From Acidiphilium sp. CAG:727 (GTDB taxonomy: Bacteria; Bacillota; Clostridia; Christensenellales; Borkfalkiaceae), in assembly GCA_000437515.1 (NCBI GenBank), contig FR898416.1, positions 1 to 32,583 of the forward strand: 32,583 bases of DNA. Direction: 5' to 3'. Below, one piece after another: positions 976-30,855 of the stretch. Each line of letters begins with the position of its first letter. The stretch's first letter is position 1. Below the pieces are notes generated by a model. It worked only from the letters and a program-made list of their open reading frames with translations, made no database searches and was not told where the DNA came from. The position numbers were made by a program, and so were the translations under genes.

Positions 976-2037
976 TTACGGCTTATCCGCTATATCCGTA
1001 AAATAACCCGGATTCTCCGTCCCTCCGTCGATACGGGCGTAAGATTTGTCAGTATGCCCGTCGTCGTAAGAAGTACCTTTCCCTCCCGTAAGTTTTTTGC
1101 ATTGCAAAAACATATTACCGGAAATGGACGCGTTATCCGTATTCCATCCGCTGCCGACGTATACGGAAGCGAGTCTGCCGCAATTAAAGAACATGTGGCT
1201 CATATCCGTAACGCTTCCGGTATTCCAACCGGAAAGGTCTAGCGAGGTAAGATTACCGCACTCGTAAAACATACAAAACATATTAGTAACGGCGGCGGTA
1301 TTCCACGAAGAAACGTCTATCGTCTCAAGTTTTTTGCAACCGCGAAACATACAATACATATTGCTAACTTTGCCGGTGTCCCACGAAGAAAGATCAAGCG
1401 ACGTAAGGCTGCCGCAACCGTAGAACATACTGTTCATATTGGTAACGCCTGCGGTGTTCCACTTTGAAAGGTCAAGCGTCGTCAAAGAAGAACAACCGTG
1501 GAACAAAAACTCCATATCCTCGACGTTTTTGGTATTCCACGAGGTAACGTTTTTTACCTCCGCCAACTTGTCGCAACCGCGAAACATACCGCGCATAGTG
1601 GTAACCATTCCAGTTTCGAAGTTTGAAAAATCGACGGACGTCAGTTCCTTAAGTCCGAAAAACGTTTGAAAGGAATCCGGATTGGCGTAAATTTTTCGGT
1701 TTGAAAGAATATACGCTTTCGTTCCCTTAACGTACAGTTTTATTTTACCCGTTTTTTTCAGGTCGACGTTTGTCGGCTCGATTCCGACGATTTCGCTCTC
1801 GTAATCGTCCGTTTTCCCGAATACGACTTCCGTCACGGAAGTACCCAAAGTATTTCTGAGTTGCAAACCCGGCATAAGCGTGTCTACGCTCGTTAAGTTC
1901 AAAGTAAGATTCCCCACCGGCTTTTCTATCACGTATTTACTCATAGTGAACGCAACGGAAAGAAGAGAAGTTACCAGAAACATAAAAAGTAACGCGATTA
2001 TACTTTTACGTCGGATATTTTTCGTAAAATTTTTCAT
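976..2037 (-). CDS. Surface protein with DUF285 / BspA-like 26-residue repeats and an N-terminal signal anchor
   Basis: At least 6 tandem ~25-26 aa repeats of the form LDLSxWNTxxVTNMxxMFxxCxxLTS, typical of DUF285 / bacterial surface protein 26-residue repeat. C-terminus is ...DGGTENPGYFT. Start moved to ATG 2037, preceded by GGAGAAGG. The N-terminal basic plus hydrophobic segment ends AFTMSKYV. Confidence 0.8.
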   Translation of the reverse strand: MKNFTKNIRRKSIIALLFMFLVTSLLSVAFTMSKYVIEKPVGNLTLNLTSVDTLMPGLQLRNTLGTSVTEVVFGKTDDYESEIVGIEPTNVDLKKTGKIKLYVKGTKAYILSNRKIYANPDSFQTFFGLKELTSVDFSNFETGMVTTMRGMFRGCDKLAEVKNVTSWNTKNVEDMEFLFHGCSSLTTLDLSKWNTAGVTNMNSMFYGCGSLTSLDLSSWDTGKVSNMYCMFRGCKKLETIDVSSWNTAAVTNMFCMFYECGNLTSLDLSGWNTGSVTDMSHMFFNCGRLASVYVGSGWNTDNASISGNMFLQCKKLTGGKGTSYDDGHTDKSYARIDGGTENPGYFTDIADKP

Positions 2038-2054
2038 ATACCTTCTCCGCCTAT

Positions 2055-2591
2055 TTAACAAACTTGCTCGGCGCGAACCGAAACGCCCGTATTCGTGAAA
2101 ACGTAATCCCGCAACAGGATGCTTTCGTCAACTACGGAAAAAACCAAAGTATGATCGTAAGTTTGAGATTTTCCCGCCGTAAAACGCCCCACGTCCGCAA
2201 TCGTAACCGTTTTTCCGTCCGCCGAAACCGTACCGCTCTTTCCGTCCACGGTTACCGAAACGCCGTTCGGCAACGCTTGGGGAAAGGTCACTATCACGTC
2301 GTATTTGAACGCTAATTCCGCCGTTTTCCCCTCTTTCGTATTCGTAACCGTAAAGTTATACGAGGCGGTCGTGATTCCCCGTTCGCAGTCAATCGTCAGA
2401 TTATCGGAAGAACTCCCCCGTAAATCTATAATCAGAACCGAAACCTGCGCGTTGTCGCCGCCTCTTGACGAGGAAAGATTTTTAGCAAAAGAAACGCCGC
2501 TCGCCGCAACGAGAAGAGTTACGAAAAGGATAACGAGCGCAAAAACCGATCTTGCGCCGTTTCCTCTTTTCATTCCTCCGTTTCTTAACAT
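2055..2591 (-). CDS. Small secreted protein, possibly a TasA/camelysin-like beta-sandwich with a SipW-type signal
   Basis: ATG 2591 has GGAGG 6 nt upstream (cctcc 2598-2602 on +). The signal anchor is KRGNGARSVFALVILFVTLLVAASGVSFAKNLSSS. The mature part is beta-rich and ends ...VSVRAEQVC. It is co-directional and closely spaced with its neighbours. Confidence 0.55.
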   Translation of the reverse strand: MLRNGGMKRGNGARSVFALVILFVTLLVAASGVSFAKNLSSSRGGDNAQVSVLIIDLRGSSSDNLTIDCERGITTASYNFTVTNTKEGKTAELAFKYDVIVTFPQALPNGVSVTVDGKSGTVSADGKTVTIADVGRFTAGKSQTYDHTLVFSVVDESILLRDYVFTNTGVSVRAEQVC

Positions 2592-2736
2592 CTTCGTCCT
2601 CCGTCAGCGGTTCGGTTCCCCGGGATTGCCCGACGGAATTTCCGACTGATCCGCTAAAAAATACTTTACTTACTTTCTTATCCGCAGAGGTCGCTTTTTC
2701 CGCGCGACCGAACGGTTTGCTTTATACCTCGCCCGT

Positions 2737-3513
2737 TTACAGAGCGTATTGCGTCACCTGCATATCAAGGTCAAAATCGATTTCCGTGCAGACGTCTTTT
2801 ATCGTCCAGTCGCCGTAAGCGGCGTAACTCGCGTCGTCTGCGCGACGGCCGAGAATCGTGTCGAGTTCGTTAACGGTTATACCGGTAAAGGTTCCCTTCC
2901 CCTCAAACGCCCACGCCCAGACGAGTTCGTAAGTCGTTTCGGCTAATACCTCGCCTGCTTCTTTTACGCTGAGAACGGGGTCGGAATGGAAAGTCAAGGC
3001 AACCTCCATAAGAGTCGTGTTTTCCGCGCCGGTTACGACGACGCCGTTCTTTTTAAGCGTCCATTTAACGGGTTGATATACTATCTCTTCCCCGCCGGCT
3101 TTCTGCAGTTTAAGTACTACGTCCTTTTTCGGGTGTATCCCCATTGCAATCAACGCTTTCACTTCGGCGCGTCCTTTGATCTTAAAGGTCATAGACCCGG
3201 TCGTTCCGGGCGCAATTACGTTATAGTCGCCGCTTGCTTTTACGGTAAGACCGGCAGTATCTGCGGTCGCTTTGCTTACCACGCCGTCGAACTTATAGTT
3301 TTTGCCGAAAAGGTTACTGCCGTCTGCCTCTAAGGTATAACCCCATTTGGCAACCTGCGCTATGCCTTTATCGCTGCTGCTCGTTACGTACTTTGACAAA
3401 GTGTATCCGCCAAAGCACAAAATCGCGATTAATGCAAATAATAATACTGCTATAACCGCCGTTTTCCCGTTATTCTTCCTTTTTGTTTTCTGTTGTGTCA
3501 TCTTCGGCACCAT
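2737..3513 (-). CDS. Secreted protein, TasA/camelysin-like candidate major subunit with a SipW-type signal
   Basis: The N-terminus KTKRKNNGKTAVIAVLLFALIAILCFGGYTLSKYVTSSS resembles SipW-cognate signals (GGTxAYFTD). Internal NVIAPGTTGSMTFKIKG and the C-terminal ...DMQVTQYAL resemble TasA-type exported proteins. The start is uncertain (ATG 3513 or 3501, no clear SD for either). Confidence 0.55.
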   Translation of the reverse strand: MVPKMTQQKTKRKNNGKTAVIAVLLFALIAILCFGGYTLSKYVTSSSDKGIAQVAKWGYTLEADGSNLFGKNYKFDGVVSKATADTAGLTVKASGDYNVIAPGTTGSMTFKIKGRAEVKALIAMGIHPKKDVVLKLQKAGGEEIVYQPVKWTLKKNGVVVTGAENTTLMEVALTFHSDPVLSVKEAGEVLAETTYELVWAWAFEGKGTFTGITVNELDTILGRRADDASYAAYGDWTIKDVCTEIDFDLDMQVTQYAL

Positions 3514-10168: not shown

Positions 10169-10699
10169 TTATACGTCGTAATCGTCGCGTTCGTCTTCGT
10201 CCTCTTCTTCGTCTTCTTCGCTGTACTCGCCGATGTCGGTAGGATATTCGAAGTCGTCATCGTCGTCGTGAACGCCGTCGTCGTAGTAATCGTCGTCCTG
10301 CTCTTCTTCGTCGTCAAAAAGTTCTTTGGCTTCTTCCTCTTCGAGTTGCGAAAGCGAAAGCATCGCTTCTTCGTCGTCGCCCTGATTGCTTATCGCTTCT
10401 TTTTCGTCCTCGTCGAGATAGTTTCTCCACTCTTCGTCGTTGTCGGGATCGTCCTCGCTCGTTTCTTCGCGTTCCTTTTCGGCGCGAGCCTCTCTGCACT
10501 CCTCGCACATCTCTTCGCCGTCGTCGATAAAGTTACGTTTGCAGATCGGGCAAAGGACCTGATCCTGATCGTCGTCGCCGTCGAGCGCGGCAAATTTTAT
10601 CTGCGGTCCGATTTTGAGTTCAGCCTTACAAACGTCGCAGTACGGCTCGCCTTCGAGCATGTAGTTAAGGTCGCACCTCGGACATTTTACGTATTTCAT
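10169..10699 (-). CDS. Double zinc-ribbon protein with an extremely acidic C-terminal tail; function unknown
   Basis: ORF 10169..10783 trimmed to ATG 10699, preceded by GGGAGA. Two Cys4 units are present (CPRC...CDVC and CPIC...CEEC). About 100 residues follow that are dominated by D/E (DDEEEQDDDYYDDGVHDDDDDFEY...EEDEEEDEDERDDYDV). Confidence 0.7.
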   Translation of the reverse strand: MKYVKCPRCDLNYMLEGEPYCDVCKAELKIGPQIKFAALDGDDDQDQVLCPICKRNFIDDGEEMCEECREARAEKEREETSEDDPDNDEEWRNYLDEDEKEAISNQGDDEEAMLSLSQLEEEEAKELFDDEEEQDDDYYDDGVHDDDDDFEYPTDIGEYSEEDEEEDEDERDDYDV

Positions 10700-10885
10700 T
10701 TTATTCTCCCTGTCGCCCGAAAAAGTTCGGGCTTTATATAATATATATCCGAATTTTAATTTTATGTGCAAAATAACACGCACAAAAAATACGCATAAAC
10801 CGCTTTCGGCGATTCACGCGCATATATTATAGCATAATATTTTTATTTGTAAACTGTTTTATATAACCAAAACGAATTTTTTCAG

Positions 10886-21780: not shown

Positions 21781-21818
21781 AAAAAAACGCCTTATTTTCT
21801 GCAAAATAAGGCGTTTTT
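21781..21818 (-). terminator. Rho-independent terminator ending the toxin/propeller block
   Basis: aacgccttatttt (21786-21798), loop ctgc, aaaataaggcgtt (21803-21815). On the minus strand it is followed by T7 (A-run 21781-21787 on +). It lies just downstream of the stop at 21823. Confidence 0.88.
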
Positions 21819-21822
21819 ATAT

Positions 21823-22788
21823 TTATTGATTTTTAATTTCTTCGTCTTTGTCGAATACTAAAATTCTGCTTTTGACCTTATTCGGTATAGGGCGACGTTT
21901 TTTATCCAACTCTTCGTATTTGTCGAGCGCTAAAAATTTATATTTTTCACTCTCTGCGTAGCAGGCAATCCGTTCGCCCGCTCCGCACGTATATACCGTT
22001 TCTACGGTCTTGAAATCTTTAGTTACCCGAATTATCTCAACGTCAAAGAGATCCCAGAAATAAATAAATTTTTCGCTCTCATACATGTTCCAATATGCCT
22101 TACCCAGCATATTGACATAATTTATAATATCATTTTCGTTGACTCTGTAAATACGCTTTCCGGGAACGTGTAAATAATTACCTTTTCCTGCAATATGAGA
22201 GAGCAGTTCATTACTTTGAAATATTTTTTCAATAAGATTCAATTTACCGTCTTCAAGATTGTACCGACCATAAATGGTATAAGACGTTTTATGAGAGTTG
22301 TCTGCCGGTTCAAAACAGGACTCAAACAAATAAATATCCCCGCCCGAACACCTGTGTAAAGAATAAAACCGCCTGTGATTATCGTCAATATTGCAGCCGT
22401 AATTATAGTTTGTTATTTCTCTGTTCTTCACGTCTATCACGGCAAGCGAATTGCCCCACAACGAAGACGAACTACCCATAACGTAGATTTTCTCTTCAAT
22501 ATCGTCGTAACAAACGTTTCCATCAATAACGTGATACTTAAATCTTTTAACGATCGAATAATCGTTTATATTCAAAAGCCAACACTCGTCATTGTTTGTT
22601 TCGAGAAATAATAAACCGTATTTATGAATGAACAACATATTGCCGGCATACCTGAAGCCTTTTATCTGAGTTTGTACCGTAGCGGAGTTCATATCTATCA
22701 CACTCGTTCTATGCCCTATCGAATACAATTTCTGCGATTCTTCGTCTATACACATAAAATACGGCGCGCCGATTTTTATAGTTTTCAT
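21823..22788 (-). CDS. Predicted cytoplasmic 7-bladed beta-propeller-like protein, paralog A (candidate immunity protein)
   Basis: ORF 21823..22803 trimmed to ATG 22788, preceded by GGAGA. There is no signal peptide. It is strongly similar to the 23784..24773 product; the N-terminal ~105 aa are roughly 60% identical by eye (e.g. GAPY.M..D...QKLY..G.RT.VID.N; LFIHK.G..FL.TNNDECWLLNI.DYS.V.RFKY). Hydrophobic strand motifs recur at a ~45-aa period. Confidence 0.7.
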   Translation of the reverse strand: MKTIKIGAPYFMCIDEESQKLYSIGHRTSVIDMNSATVQTQIKGFRYAGNMLFIHKYGLLFLETNNDECWLLNINDYSIVKRFKYHVIDGNVCYDDIEEKIYVMGSSSSLWGNSLAVIDVKNREITNYNYGCNIDDNHRRFYSLHRCSGGDIYLFESCFEPADNSHKTSYTIYGRYNLEDGKLNLIEKIFQSNELLSHIAGKGNYLHVPGKRIYRVNENDIINYVNMLGKAYWNMYESEKFIYFWDLFDVEIIRVTKDFKTVETVYTCGAGERIACYAESEKYKFLALDKYEELDKKRRPIPNKVKSRILVFDKDEEIKNQ

Positions 22789-22799
22789 ATTATCTCCGT

Positions 22800-23708
22800 T
22801 CAATCGTTAAAATCGTAATCGGTTAAATCTTCGCTCGATTTCGCTACCACAAGCCTGTCCCATGAGCCTATATATCTGTTACCGTCGAATTCGCAATAAT
22901 CGTCGAGATAGGGCATAACGGCAATTTCACGCTTTTCTTGAAAATCGTTTGAAAATTCATACACGGCTCGACCCGTTCCGATAACAAATCGATCGCCGTA
23001 TTTCTTGACAAATTTAATATATTCCTTCTTGAAAAGACTTTTCCCCTTAATTACCGTATCGCCGTACAAAATCGCTCCGGCATCACAAAATCCGCCGTCA
23101 AAACCTTCAACACCGAGAACGAACACACCGTTCCACTTTTTGATAACTTCTTTATTGATAAGTTTACCGTCAACGAAAGAATACCTGCCGTAAACGGTTT
23201 CATCCGTCAACTTCTTTCGTTTACCCTTTTTAGTAACGCAAAAACTTTCGATAAGATAAAAATCTTCTCCTTCAAATCTCATCAATTCGTAATCGGTACG
23301 GGCTATCATTTCGTCATAACGTGTTTCGAAAGCAAATCTTTTAACAGAAAAAGTTTGTAATTCAATAACCGCAACCACTTCTTTTTTATAATCGTATCCC
23401 CATACGCAAATCTCGTTTTTAGTTCCGTTTATTACTATACGACCGTCTTTTACTCCGGTTTTAACAGAAGCGACGAGTGCAAAATCTTTGAGATTGAATA
23501 CTTTTAAGTCGCCTACCGTATTTAACGCGTAAAGTTTATCGCCCGGATAATCTATACTTGCGTAAGAAAGATAACTGAACCCGCCTATACGCGTAATCTT
23601 ACGCATGGTTTTCAAATCGAAAACGTGAATCGATACCCCTACGCACAACAAGCGTGAATATTTTTCGTCTATCAATATCTGATAAACTCTCATTTTCAAG
23701 TTCTTCAT
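22800..23708 (-). CDS. Predicted beta-propeller-like protein, divergent paralog B (candidate immunity protein)
   Basis: 302 aa, no signal peptide. It shares blade-like motifs with A and C (KLYALNTVGDLKVFNLKDF; ETVYGRYSFVDGKLINKE versus TIYGRYNLEDGKLNLIE). It lies 11 nt upstream of paralog A. Confidence 0.65.
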   Translation of the reverse strand: MKNLKMRVYQILIDEKYSRLLCVGVSIHVFDLKTMRKITRIGGFSYLSYASIDYPGDKLYALNTVGDLKVFNLKDFALVASVKTGVKDGRIVINGTKNEICVWGYDYKKEVVAVIELQTFSVKRFAFETRYDEMIARTDYELMRFEGEDFYLIESFCVTKKGKRKKLTDETVYGRYSFVDGKLINKEVIKKWNGVFVLGVEGFDGGFCDAGAILYGDTVIKGKSLFKKEYIKFVKKYGDRFVIGTGRAVYEFSNDFQEKREIAVMPYLDDYCEFDGNRYIGSWDRLVVAKSSEDLTDYDFND

Positions 23709-23783
23709 GTCATTTACGCCGTATAATTAACTATTGATATAATGATTTTCTGTGTTTTTAACATATTCAAAACCTTAGTTTCA

Positions 23784-24773
23784 TTACCGCCCTTTCATGC
23801 ATATTGCGGAAGATTTCATCTCTTCGTTTTTATCAAAAACCATTATTCTGCTTTTGGTAACGTTATACTGCAACACTCCGCGTTCGTTATACTCGTCGCA
23901 TTTGGAAACTGCGACAAACCTGTATTTTTCGCTTTCCGCATAAGACGTCACTTTTTCTCCGAATCCTTTCGTGAAAACCGTTTCAACGCTGTCGAAATCG
24001 ACGGTGGTACGAATTATTTTATCGCTGAACCATTCCCAAAAATAAATATATTTATCCGAAATAAAAAATCTAAAATACAATTCTCCGATTTTAGCGCCGT
24101 AATCTATAACGTCGTTTTCTTTAACTCTATACATAAATCCTTTTATCGGACTTAACATATAATCGTCGTTCCCTTTCGCAAATACGATATCTTCGTTGCC
24201 GGTATATATAGTGTCGATAAGCTGTAATCCGTCTTTAGATAACCGATATTTGCCGTAAATCGTTTCTACGTTTTCGGTCGACGTCGGAAGTATGTCGTAA
24301 GAGCAATTTAGCAGATACAAATCTTCGCCCGCGCACTTATGTGGCGAATAAAAGGATAACCTTCGCCTTTTTTCGTCTATAATACGCGGAAAACAATAAT
24401 TTTCGATGGTCAACGTCTTCAAATCTATAACAGACACTCCGTTATCGATCCCTATCGTACCGAAAACGTAAATTTTATCCGAGACTTCATCAAAACACAC
24501 GTAAGGATCTAAAATACGATACTTAAATCTGTGTACCACGGAATAATCGTCGATATTCAACAACCAACACTCGTCGTTGTTGGTCGCAAGAAATATCCAC
24601 CCGAATTTATGGATAAACAAAATTTTTATAATATATCTGAACCCCGTAAGCCTTTTGCAGATCGTCAACGTATTAAGATCAATCACGTTTGTTCTCGTAC
24701 CGACGGCATATAATTTTTGATTTATCCGGTCTACGTACATAGAATATGGCGCGCCCGCCACAATATCTTTCAT
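23784..24773 (-). CDS. Predicted beta-propeller-like protein, paralog C (candidate cognate immunity protein)
   Basis: ATG 24773 sits 1 nt after the stop of the nuclease ORF (TAAgATG), and a G-rich SD lies inside the toxin 3' end. 329 aa, no signal peptide. About 7 blade-like segments are visible (e.g. KLYAVGTRTNVIDLNTLT; KIYVFGTIGIDNGVSVIDLKTLT; SRIMVFDKN). Confidence 0.7.
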   Translation of the reverse strand: MKDIVAGAPYSMYVDRINQKLYAVGTRTNVIDLNTLTICKRLTGFRYIIKILFIHKFGWIFLATNNDECWLLNIDDYSVVHRFKYRILDPYVCFDEVSDKIYVFGTIGIDNGVSVIDLKTLTIENYCFPRIIDEKRRRLSFYSPHKCAGEDLYLLNCSYDILPTSTENVETIYGKYRLSKDGLQLIDTIYTGNEDIVFAKGNDDYMLSPIKGFMYRVKENDVIDYGAKIGELYFRFFISDKYIYFWEWFSDKIIRTTVDFDSVETVFTKGFGEKVTSYAESEKYRFVAVSKCDEYNERGVLQYNVTKSRIMVFDKNEEMKSSAICMKGR

Positions 24774-24774
24774 C

Positions 24775-25377
24775 TTAAGCCCCCGTATTTATTACCGTTA
24801 AAATAATTTTTAACGAAGCCAGCACTCGAAAAATTTTTGTTTCATTACCGCTTGCAGGTTCTAAGCACATATTAACTGCCTTAAAGTAATCCTTGTTGTG
24901 CAACCCCTGGTGAAAACGCTCCTTAACTGCTACGAGATTTCTTTCATCCGTCCATACATTCATATATTTCTCCACAATCTCACGCGCCCTATTTGCTCGC
25001 GAATCTACTTTCGCAATAATATGATGAATGTTTGGTTTCGCCGATTTACTTTTTCTTCTCCAAATACTAAGCACGCCACTTTTACAAGCCTTAAAAAACT
25101 CCTGTATACTTCTACGTATTTCTTGTATTGCCGTTTTTAGCGCCGGGTAACACAAAATAATAAATGCAATACATAATACAGCGGAAGCGGCAATAATTGC
25201 TTTTACGCCGATTGCAATACCGCCGATAACGACCACCGCAATGCGGCCGTCGGGGTCGTAGTATTTTACGGGGTTGTTGTTCGCATAGGCGAAAAGGTTA
25301 TAAAAGCAATAAATCGTTTCATTAAGATACCGCCTTATAGTGATATGGTTTATTTTACCATATACCGTATCTCTTAT
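24775..25377 (-). pseudogene. Orphan polymorphic-toxin C-terminal cassette: RHS/YD core-end remnant + hydrophobic linker + xHH (AHH-like) HNH/EndoVII nuclease domain
   Basis: The ORF track calls 24775..25236 (GTG start). The frame stays open upstream to the stop at 25378-25380 and reads IRDTVYGKINHITIRRYLNETIYCFYNLFAYANNNPVKYYDPDGRIAVVVIGG... NLFAYANNNPVKYYDPDGR matches the conserved RHS core terminus (LYAYxxNNPVxxxDPxG). There is no ATG and no SD in this extension. The C-terminal part, NIHHIIAKVDSRANRAREIV...NVWTDERNLVAVKERFHQGLHNKDYFKAV, fits the xHH...N...H..H..Y pattern of AHH/LHH-type nuclease toxins. Confidence 0.65.
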
Positions 25378-25404
25378 TCAAGCGATTATCAAAAATTTTT
25401 ACAT

Positions 25405-25431
25405 AAAAAAAACCGACGAAAATTCGTCGGT
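25405..25431 (-). terminator. Strong rho-independent terminator after the CvpA-like gene
   Basis: accgacgaaaattcgtcggt (25412-25431) forms an 8-bp stem. On the minus strand it is followed by a T-run (A-run 25405-25411 on +). Confidence 0.85.
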
Positions 25432-25450
25432 CGTAAAATTTACGTTTCGT

Positions 25451-29481: not shown

Positions 29482-30855
29482 TTATATCTCGTCGATTTTT
29501 GTTTTGATAGCCTGCCGCAAAAATACAGCCGAAACTATACAAGTCAGAACTTCCGCAATCGGGAAAGTCCACCACACCACGTTTATAACGTCTGCCGAAA
29601 GCGTAAACAGATACGCCACGGGGAAAGTAAACGCTACGAGCCGTAAAAACGCGGTGATAAGCGGCTTTACGGCGTAGCCGAGAGCCTGCAACACGCCCTG
29701 AACGGCGACGTTAAACCCCATAAATACGAAACTCAGACTCGCAATTCTCGTCGCTTTGGCGCACACGTCCACGAGAACCGAAGAACTTCCGCCCGACAAT
29801 GCGAAGAGTTCCGACAGCGGAACGGCGATTATCTCGAACAACGCCGTTATGATAAGCGTAGTTATAAGCGTATCGATGATTCCGTATTTCACGCACGCAA
29901 GCGAACGCTCTTTATCTTTCATTCCGTAGTTGAACGACAACACGGTAATAATAGTATTAGATAAGCCGAAAGCCGAAAAGAGAGCGATTTGCTGAATTTT
30001 ATAATATATTCCGAACGAGCCTACGAGCACGGTCGAATCTGCGTTCGCCGAGCCTAAAATCGCGTTCATACCCGCCATCATAACGGACAAAAGAGCCTGC
30101 ATCAACGCCGCCGATATACCTATTTTATAGACGGCTTTAATAATAGCCAGTCGCGGTCTGATATGTTTCGGATGCCCGCAAATTTCTTTGTTAAGGCAAT
30201 AATGCAACGCCATTGCGATAAAAAGCGAAACGAACTGTCCGATAATCGTCGCCCACGCCGCGCCTTCTACGCCTAACCCTAAGGGGAATATAAAAACGTA
30301 GTCCAACACGATATTCGTTACCGCGCCGGAAATCTGCGCTATCGTAGAAAACATAGTTTTGCCCGTGGCTTGCAAAAATCGTTCGTATACCGCAAAACCT
30401 ATCGAACCGAGAGAAAAACAAACGCAGATACGAAGGTACGCCGCGCCCATTTTTATAACGTCGGCGTTCGTTGAAAACAACCCGATAAACCAATCGGACA
30501 AAAATAATCCGAAAAATAAAAAGACGGCGTATATAATCAAACATAAAAATATGCCGTTGCCCGCTACGGCGTTGACTTTTTCGGTATTGCGTTCGCCCAG
30601 ATTTTTCGATAAGAGAGCGTTCAGACCTACGCCCGTACCCACGCTTACCGCGATAATCATAATCTGAACGGGGAACGCAATCGTGAGAGCCTCGTTGGCA
30701 CGCGCGCCCGAACCCTGCATATTCGCTACGAATACGCTGTCGACCACGTTATAAAGGGCTTGCAGAACCATTGAAATAATCATGGGTAAACCAAGTTTCC
30801 AAAAGAGTTTTTTGACAGAGTCCGTCGCCATTTTGTTTTGTCGTACTTCTTCCAT
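29482..30855 (-). CDS. MATE family efflux transporter
   Basis: 12-TM protein. The N-terminal SVKKLFWKLGLPMIISMVLQALYNVVDSVFV is typical of NorM/MATE. AAAGGTG sits 5 nt before ATG 30855. Confidence 0.88.
   Translation of the reverse strand: MEEVRQNKMATDSVKKLFWKLGLPMIISMVLQALYNVVDSVFVANMQGSGARANEALTIAFPVQIMIIAVSVGTGVGLNALLSKNLGERNTEKVNAVAGNGIFLCLIIYAVFLFFGLFLSDWFIGLFSTNADVIKMGAAYLRICVCFSLGSIGFAVYERFLQATGKTMFSTIAQISGAVTNIVLDYVFIFPLGLGVEGAAWATIIGQFVSLFIAMALHYCLNKEICGHPKHIRPRLAIIKAVYKIGISAALMQALLSVMMAGMNAILGSANADSTVLVGSFGIYYKIQQIALFSAFGLSNTIITVLSFNYGMKDKERSLACVKYGIIDTLITTLIITALFEIIAVPLSELFALSGGSSSVLVDVCAKATRIASLSFVFMGFNVAVQGVLQALGYAVKPLITAFLRLVAFTFPVAYLFTLSADVINVVWWTFPIAEVLTCIVSAVFLRQAIKTKIDEI

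Follow-up and report, generated by a model that had tools for sequence, protein, structure and literature searches.

The closest described counterparts of the locus studied here are the WapA toxins, the orphan rhs-CT/rhsI modules and the Tox-AHH nucleases. We analyzed a window of 32,583 nucleotides from Acidiphilium sp. CAG:727, a gut Christensenellales species (GCA_000437515.1, contig FR898416.1, positions 1–32,583), whose minus strand holds between 25381 and 21783 a start-less piece of an RHS toxin gene followed by three putative immunity genes, imm1, imm2 and imm3. This region is very probably a null allele of a main toxin gene, derived by deletion, in which the immunity array has been retained. 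WapA, known from Bacillus subtilis and Streptococcus suis (PMC12704120), has a signal-peptide-like N-terminus, YD/RHS repeats, a core ending in DPxG, a variable C-terminal nuclease (the tip), an adjoining downstream immunity gene and truncated fragments in its locus, all of which recur in the intact allele that we found at the same site in other strains. WapA precursor is also the automatic annotation name of one homologue (P0158). By contrast, WapA exceeds 2000–3000 amino acids, whereas the intact allele encodes 752 amino acids with a shell of ~560 amino acids and no detected wall-binding domain; its tip is an AHH DNase-type domain behind a hydrophobic segment, and in the window allele the whole shell is deleted.

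In its present state, the window allele looks more like the orphan rhs-CT/rhsI modules exemplified by STM0292 of Salmonella LT2 (PMC3967940), with a fragmentary frame, little core, a tip and a linked immunity gene, and without translation-initiation and export signals. Orphan modules share extended homology with the main rhs gene (522 bp in Salmonella LT2; PMC3967940), and, for truncated Rhs or WapA fragments, expression and delivery depend on a full-length partner (PMC3967940, PMC12704120). At this locus, 60 nt of core and about 105–230 nt of conserved hydrophobic and linker sequence are left, and no second rhs gene is known for the species, of whose genome the window covers 32.6 kb. Unlike the orphan modules, however, 25302–24775 does not lie behind a main rhs gene: it is what an internal deletion has left of that gene, whose promoter, ribosome-binding site and, out of frame, ATG are kept. 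A second tip remnant (23789–23714), taken together with imm2, fits the orphan pattern well and lies downstream of the former main gene. Tox-AHH (PF14412; PMC3482391) shares with the window tip a score above the gathering threshold, the xHH/N/H/H/Y motif and the C-terminal position on an RHS protein; none of the immunity families listed for it (Imm-PA2201, Imm11, Imm20, Imm23, Imm24 and Imm43; PMC3482391) was matched by imm1–3. The window allele shows the polymorphic-toxin arrangement of a variable tip after DPxG with an immunity gene 1 nt later, but as an RHS toxin it has no YD/RHS repeats, an incomplete core and one of the two aspartates.

An intact RHS gene at the same site

A degenerate pattern for the junction (AYANNNPVKYYDPDG) was run against metagenome contigs. 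Six contigs were returned, and 6/6 carried it at this locus, in flanks 95–99% identical to the window. Four of them (L095, L098, L099 and L100) contained an uninterrupted open reading frame (ORF) of 752–754 amino acids starting MKRFIAFISVALAAVFC, with ~1.7 kb between the leader and the junction. The 5′ end of the gene was cut off in L097, yet 561 in-frame codons of the intact gene were present, and the sixth contig, L096, carried the deletion allele. The L100 protein matched TIGR03696 over positions 1–76 of 76 (69.8 bits, E = 2.1e-19; cutoff 32.5), and it also matched RHS_repeat (PF05593, E = 3.5e-12), YD_repeat (TIGR01643) and AHH (E = 5.9e-9). Judged by these profile matches, the intact 752-aa protein is a true RHS protein. 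Its parts follow one another as a signal-peptide-like N-terminus, ~560 amino acids of YD shell and Rhs core, the DPDG junction, the hydrophobic segment and the AHH domain; Pfam and NCBIfam scans of the protein detected no cell-wall-binding domain. The intact toxin is probably a short, WapA-like, RHS/YD-shell polymorphic toxin that is secreted through Sec.

Exact-protein look-ups with a 153-aa ORF of the window and with two variants led to metagenome contigs from the human gut, where the gene order was always glnS, a gene for a 233-aa membrane protein, the toxin locus and ecfA1/ecfA2/ecfT-truA-rplM-rpsI. A module search of GTDB representative genomes with close alignment yielded 83 matched stretches, none of them homologous, indicating that the locus of this species is absent from the GTDB representative set. 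The 233-aa membrane protein had no significant Pfam or NCBIfam family. In L008 (6442–7180), its gene was split into ORFs of 77 and 115 amino acids, probably a pseudogene or an assembly error.

The nearest related species, represented by a Christensenellaceae metagenome-assembled genome whose GlnS is 83% identical, had no toxin at the equivalent site. In that species (L015:253–1490), a 202-aa ORF that has an ATG lies at a contig end. It combines an RHS junction (NLYAYCNNNPVMHSDPTGH) with a hydrophobic segment and a C-terminal domain of unrelated sequence, and is another toxin module of the junction-plus-hydrophobic kind. The next gene encodes 206 amino acids, with a hydrophobic N-terminus that resembles a signal peptide; the region upstream of the ORF was cut off.

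A 1711-bp deletion between short direct repeats

Aligned base by base, the window and the intact gene agreed from the promoter to the end of ATGAAACGATTTATTGCTTTTATAA and again from TTATAACCTTTTCGCC onwards. The missing segment lay between two copies of TTATAA and measured 1711 bp against L100, L098 and L095 and 1705 bp against L099. Both lengths leave a remainder of 1 on division by 3; codons 10–577 of the intact gene were lost, and the join is out of frame. A tblastn search of the window with the intact 752-aa protein recovered residues 1–9 and 578–752 only. The lost part included the core stretch GRFICADDP, in which the first catalytic aspartate would be expected by analogy with RhsA.

At least 14 fetched contigs, drawn from separate samples and in some cases as long as 59 kb and 490 kb, share the identical junction, which occurs on three tip backgrounds. 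Because of this recurrence, and because a microhomology of 6 bp is far below assembler k-mer sizes and cannot mislead an assembler, the deletion is real and not an artefact. Within the 95 nt upstream of the ATG, no single-nucleotide polymorphism was fixed between deletion and full-length alleles, so this leader is compatible with one origin of the deletion and with repeated origins alike; given the evident recombination at the locus, a single deletion followed by recombination is the more economical reading.

Taking these results together, the loss of 1711 bp between the TTATAA copies removed the shell, shifted the frame and left the tip and the three downstream genes, all intact, in place. 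Transcription probably still begins at the native promoter, and ribosomes entering at the native ATG (25322) would meet a stop after 18 codons. With neither an in-frame start nor a signal peptide or shell, and with a single autoprotease aspartate, the tip most likely is not produced and could not be delivered. Since an intact gene occupies the same site and a single internal deletion separates the two, we regard the window allele as a null allele formed in situ and not as a displaced orphan. The genes imm1–3 would still confer immunity to the A-, C- and B-like AHH tips of relatives, and the strain would then be an immune non-producer.

The residual open frame

The minus-strand frame comprised 200 open codons, from 25377 to the stop codon at 24777–24775, with a TAA at 25380–25378 upstream; the ORF list starts a 153-aa ORF within it at GTG 25236. 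The initial annotation, made from the sequence of the window, had followed the open frame from this GTG back to the same TAA, and its translation of the 200 codons was exact. It had described all 47 codons upstream of the GTG as an RHS junction. This applies to 20 of them (YNLFAYANNNPVKYYDPDGR), which hold the second Asp of the DPxG autocleavage motif and are followed by the IA that opens the hydrophobic segment, but the first 25 (25377–25303) translate, out of frame, what were the promoter, the 5′ leader and the start region of the original gene. Its statement that the extension lacks an ATG and a Shine-Dalgarno sequence is correct for that frame, as no in-frame ATG could be read upstream of GTG 25236; it had overlooked the native, out-of-frame ATG with its AAGGCGG. 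Residues 1–9 of the L100 protein map to the leftover ORF that begins there, and of the signal-peptide-like N-terminus the window keeps MKRFIAFI.

Scans likewise returned the strong terminator that had been placed about 25 nt upstream and the promoter-like TTGAAT-18-TAAAAT. The terminator sequence is kept in all alleles and forms the 5′ boundary of the toxin operon. In L100, the promoter-like sequence likewise stands ~31 nt ahead of the start codon (ATG) of the 752-aa gene, and from its position we infer that it is the native rhs promoter; it still stands ahead of the downstream genes. The possibility, raised in the initial annotation, that a sequencing error in the stop at 25380–25378 hides a longer ORF was rejected, since this stop lies within and next to the −35 element and is kept in all alleles, including the full-length ones.

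The description of the frame as a core end fused to an AHH-type nuclease was borne out by profile searches. PF14412 (AHH) matched residues 110–177 of the 200-aa translation (E = 1.3e-8, 35.3 bits; curated cutoff 22.3), and TIGR03696 (Rhs_assc_core) matched it at model positions 57–75 of 76 only (E = 6.7e-4, 20.1 bits; cutoff 32.5), a partial, sub-cutoff score of the kind that a fragment should give. The Pfam scan of this translation found no RHS_repeat. Residues H118, H119, N147, H156, H160 and Y164 are all present in the window tip and were invariant in an alignment of 11 sequences (A3). In an AlphaFold2 model of the tip fragment, the domain had predicted local distance difference test (pLDDT) values of 85–93, with the HH on a strand (71–74), the N on a strand (103–106) and the His on a helix (108–114), whereas residues 2–64 formed one long low-confidence helix. 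Foldseek ranked the HNH enzyme EcoKMcrA as the best PDB match of the model, at a non-significant level (E = 1.9, probability 0.16); a PDB sequence search with the tip protein matched the RHS junction and nothing over the AHH part, and a PADLOC scan gave a single weak sub-threshold match. Going by its sequence, the tip is an AHH domain with every catalytic residue present and with predicted nuclease activity.

Exchange of tips and immunity genes

Full-length and deleted alleles both occurred with several tips. Among the full-length alleles, L098 and L100 had a B tip followed by a 317-aa gene; L095 and L099, together with clusters P0155 and P0156, had a C tip followed by imm2-like (91%) and imm3-like (65–69%) genes; and L097 had a C′ tip followed by imm2 (97%) and an imm1-like gene. 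Deletion alleles carried an A tip followed by imm1, imm2 and imm3 (the window and L007–L013), a B tip followed by the 317-aa gene (L001–L003) or a decayed D tip followed by intact imm1–3 (L004–L006 and L096). The B tip was therefore present on full-length and deleted alleles alike, and the deletion junction with A, B and D tips. DNA alignment showed the upstream leader and the junction to be near-identical between strains, with divergence setting in directly after DPDGR for the D type and after IQEFFK between A and B, a pattern that is, at the level of aligned sequence, the signature of a polymorphic toxin tip.

In the D-tip alleles, HH had changed to HR or HY, and the tip contained a premature stop and a frameshift. 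The adjacent imm1–3 genes were full length and 98–99% identical. That the tip decayed while the immunity genes were kept argues that no selection acts on the tip once the shell is gone.

The second tip remnant of the window, which lies in the 75 nt between imm1 and imm2, was identical from TKVLNML onwards to the end of the C′-type tip of L097, and blastn showed homology between it and the 3′ ends of the toxin genes in L095, L097 and L099. The last imm1 codons overlap it. As read from these alignments, the remnant is a displacement footprint, an A-tip/imm1 cassette having replaced a C-type tip and left imm2 and imm3 behind. In L097 (2599–2803), the gene after imm2 consisted of ~15 imm3-like codons and then imm1-like sequence, which looks like a chimeric boundary produced by recombination among paralogous immunity genes.

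The locus is a clear natural example of polymorphic-toxin turnover within one uncultured gut Christensenellales species: its intact alleles bear at least three tips, both tips and immunity genes have been exchanged, a displaced tip has left its footprint, and a microhomology deletion has produced a toxin-minus, immunity-plus allele. A degraded toxin locus with orphan immunity is an ordinary outcome at a fast-recombining toxin locus. What gene callers predict as a 153-aa "AHH protein", at this locus and in many assemblies of gut metagenomes, is a fragment of a pseudogene, and the functional unit at the locus is most likely the immunity array.

Alternative explanations

The initial annotation had taken the fragment for an orphan module kept for recombination into a main rhs gene, that is, a silent toxin/immunity cassette held in reserve and reactivated by exchange with a full-length rhs gene, whether one at another site in the genome or one taken up from a conspecific. 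Like known orphans, the module has no in-frame initiation or export signals, its A tip is intact in all copies, and the near-identical upstream flank and junction-plus-hydrophobic region could serve as homology arms at a locus where tips and immunity genes have clearly been swapped and the same junction is joined to A, B and D tips. However, a cassette of this kind would not be expected where the sequence ~25 nt upstream is the terminator of an unrelated membrane-protein gene and not a main rhs gene, where every hit of the junction pattern in the metagenome contigs falls at one locus that also holds the intact gene, and where the core sequence left amounts to 60 nt. One deletion within the main gene explains the structure, and in one deletion lineage the tip has decayed. 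We therefore consider the reserve cassette unlikely. Less probable still is that the 153-aa ORF from GTG 25236 is a real, stand-alone, membrane-anchored AHH nuclease neutralized by imm1 in the manner of an addiction or toxin-antitoxin system. Gene callers do predict this ORF in many assemblies (P0001 and P0002), it is intact, it ends 1 nt upstream of imm1 and the promoter is retained; yet no Shine-Dalgarno-like sequence is visible by reading in the preceding GACGGCCGCATTGCG, within the intact gene the GTG is an internal Val codon (in IAVVV), for which the D-type allele has GTC, every homologue spanning the region runs upstream into an RHS junction, and the product would have no export route. 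A programmed frameshift from the native ATG into the tip frame was also considered and rejected, as there is a plain T4 run but no canonical slippery heptamer, so that leakage is the most that could be expected. It is extremely improbable that an error of assembly or sequencing accounts for the missing 1.7 kb and that the strain really carries the intact gene. Metagenome assemblies can collapse or mis-join repeats, and full-length alleles do exist in the same species, but the junction was the same across different samples and assemblers, with a microhomology too short to confuse them, and the deletion alleles have accumulated downstream changes of their own.

Several observations weigh against a null allele produced by deletion. 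The A-tip ORF was intact in 8/8 A-type copies (the window and L007–L013), which could reflect either a recent deletion or some retained use of the tip. No A tip was seen on a full-length allele, and its ancestry on an intact gene is inferred. Initiation at GTG 25236 may occur at a low level, and a −1 slip on the T4 run at the junction (GCT TTT ATA) may join MKRFIAF to the tip frame. The N-terminus of the intact allele (MKRFIAFISVALAAVFCVNTYT...VYA/DD) resembles a signal peptide as judged by eye only. Finally, another rhs gene may lie elsewhere in the genome, as the search that found no rhs body apart from the remnant covered the 32.6-kb window.

The hydrophobic segment

The initial annotation had noted ~35 strongly hydrophobic residues after the junction and considered such a linker unusual. 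The stretch itself was readily recovered: Kyte-Doolittle values in 19-residue windows were 1.9–2.5 over residues 49–85 (maximum 2.49), and residues 46–80 were strongly hydrophobic. It is not unusual, though. An exhaustive representative search identified 365 relatives at E ≤ 1e-3, compared with three clusters each from word-index searches with the tip and with imm1. Most of the 365 aligned over query residues ~20–197 and thus over junction, hydrophobic segment and AHH domain together, and the module was C-terminal both in proteins of ~740–800 amino acids and in RHS proteins of 1000–2800 amino acids. HH[IV][IV]A was present in 126 of the 148 best representatives, and 84 of these 126 had a recognizable junction 53–121 residues (median about 78) upstream of the HH motif. 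Between junction and HH motif, a window with hydropathy above 1.6 occurred in 81 of the 84, so the segment is a conserved feature of the family and not an oddity of this locus.

The class of ~740–800 amino acids comprised 13 representatives, mostly with signal-peptide-like N-termini. L100:1647–3905, P0004, P0009, P0013, P0014, P0018 and P0019 belong to this short RHS class. Its shell of ~560 amino acids is well below the ~100-kDa cocoon of type VI secretion system Rhs effectors.

Cleavage of RhsA follows a DPxG-W motif and needs two aspartates (PMC8765631); by analogy, the fragment released from the intact protein would begin with the hydrophobic segment. In mosquito SGS1, the first predicted transmembrane helices follow the cleavage site immediately, and the YD shell shields them in its interior (PDB 8fjp, PMC9935623). 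The profile alignment with 8fjp extends through DPDGQIAVTLVLMIIGA, and both proteins have a hydrophobic stretch right after DPDG. Unlike the AHH protein, which has one ~35-residue segment and then an enzyme domain, SGS1 is a eukaryotic protein of 3364 amino acids with several predicted helices and no nuclease. By likeness to SGS1, the segment might be shielded in the AHH protein too, and a role in membrane entry is plausible. A more far-reaching combined proposal is that the post-cleavage segment is a self-inserting membrane-entry element, that the ~560-aa shell shields it and that the beta-propeller-like proteins encoded downstream are an undescribed AHH immunity family; taken as a whole, we regard this as speculative and rather doubtful. 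In such a scheme, the segment, shielded by the half-size YD shell of a Sec-secreted protein of ~750 amino acids, would carry the nuclease across the cytoplasmic membrane of the target. If so, the deletion allele of the window would be both a natural control that lacks the shell and a 'cheater' haplotype that offers immunity only and has been recombined across tip backgrounds. Both the hydrophobic pre-toxin segment of the short (~750-aa) RHS class and the beta-propeller-like candidate immunity family are seemingly uncharacterized.

The downstream immunity gene candidates

The three genes after the tip are paralogous to different degrees. Identity to imm1 was 48% for imm3 and 23% for imm2, and imm3 was 52% identical to the 317-aa gene found after B-type tips. 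Homologues of imm2 (91–97%) stood directly after the C and C′ tips in L095, L099 and L097. In another organism and contig, P0004, a 763-aa RHS-AHH protein that was 51% identical to the L100 protein over its full length, lay beside a gene whose product was 51% identical to imm2. Each tip variant, P0004 included, was thus directly trailed by a member of the imm1–3 family, and from this gene context imm1–3 are most likely immunity genes.

No Pfam, NCBIfam or PADLOC family above threshold and no signal peptide were found in imm1–3. The AlphaFold2 model of imm1 had a mean pLDDT of 68.7 and a predicted template modeling score of 0.70, being confident over the N-terminal ~190 residues and poor over 194–271. 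The model was all-beta and matched beta-propellers, among them the YVTN protein 1l0q, YncE (3vgz) and WD40 proteins (E ~1e-6, template modeling scores 0.37–0.49). By reading of the sequence, at least imm1 and imm3 have a ribosome-binding-site-like sequence of their own. The hairpin that ends the array was returned by the scan on the plus strand, and the palindrome reads alike on both strands; it is likely the operon terminator. Coordinates of all features of the locus are given in Table 1.

Table 1. Features of the toxin and immunity locus in the window, in order of transcription
Feature	Position	Strand	Basis or remark
Intrinsic terminator of the upstream 233-aa membrane-protein gene	25403..25432	-	Scan; 9-pair stem (25432-25411) and T run
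Promoter-like TTGAAT-18-TAAAAT, TG before the -10	25352..25381	-	Scan
Shine-Dalgarno-like AAGGCGG, 7 nt before the native ATG	25330..25336	-	Sequence reading; identical in full-length alleles
Leftover ORF, MKRFIAFITFSPMRTTTP and stop	25266..25322	-	Native ATG and first 8 N-terminal codons, then out-of-frame codons and a stop
Deletion junction, single leftover 6-bp microhomology TTATAA	25298..25303	-	Comparison with L100, L098, L095 and L099
RHS core-end remnant YNLFAYANNNPVKYYDPDGR, 20 codons	25243..25302	-	Partial TIGR03696 match; collinear with L100 residues 578-597
Hydrophobic segment IAVVVIGGIAIGVKAIIAASAVLCIAFIILCYPAL	25138..25242	-	Directly after the predicted autocleavage site; low-confidence helix in the model
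Basic amphipathic linker KTAIQEIRRSIQEFFKACKSGVLSIWRRK	25051..25137	-	Alignment A3; divergence of A- and B-type tips begins within it
AHH (HNH/EndoVII) nuclease, C-terminal helix and stop	24775..25050	-	PF14412, alignment A3, AlphaFold2 model
imm1, 329 aa, putative immunity gene	23784..24773	-	Starts 1 nt past the toxin stop codon
Second toxin-tip remnant, last 25 codons and stop of a C′-type AHH tip, GGNETKVLNMLKTQKIIISIVNYTA and stop	23714..23789	-	
imm2, 302 aa, putative immunity to C-type tips	22800..23708	-	
imm3, 326 aa, paralogue	21823..22803	-	Likely start ATG 22788
Hairpin, 16-pair stem with T runs on both sides	21783..21818	-	Scan

Other genes in the window

A MatE-family efflux gene (29482–30855, minus strand) was present in the window and in L007 and L008 and absent from the collinear contigs L001 and L099, and is a presence/absence polymorphism within the species. 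On the minus strand at 10169–10783, an ORF encodes Cys-x2-Cys pairs (CPRC, CDVC, CPIC and CEEC) followed by an extremely acidic, Asp/Glu-rich tail. At 976–3513 (minus strand) lie three adjacent genes that have no relation to the toxin locus; each of their products has a hydrophobic N-terminus resembling a signal peptide, and one product contains tandem repeats of about 25 residues (SWNT..V..M..MF..C..L).

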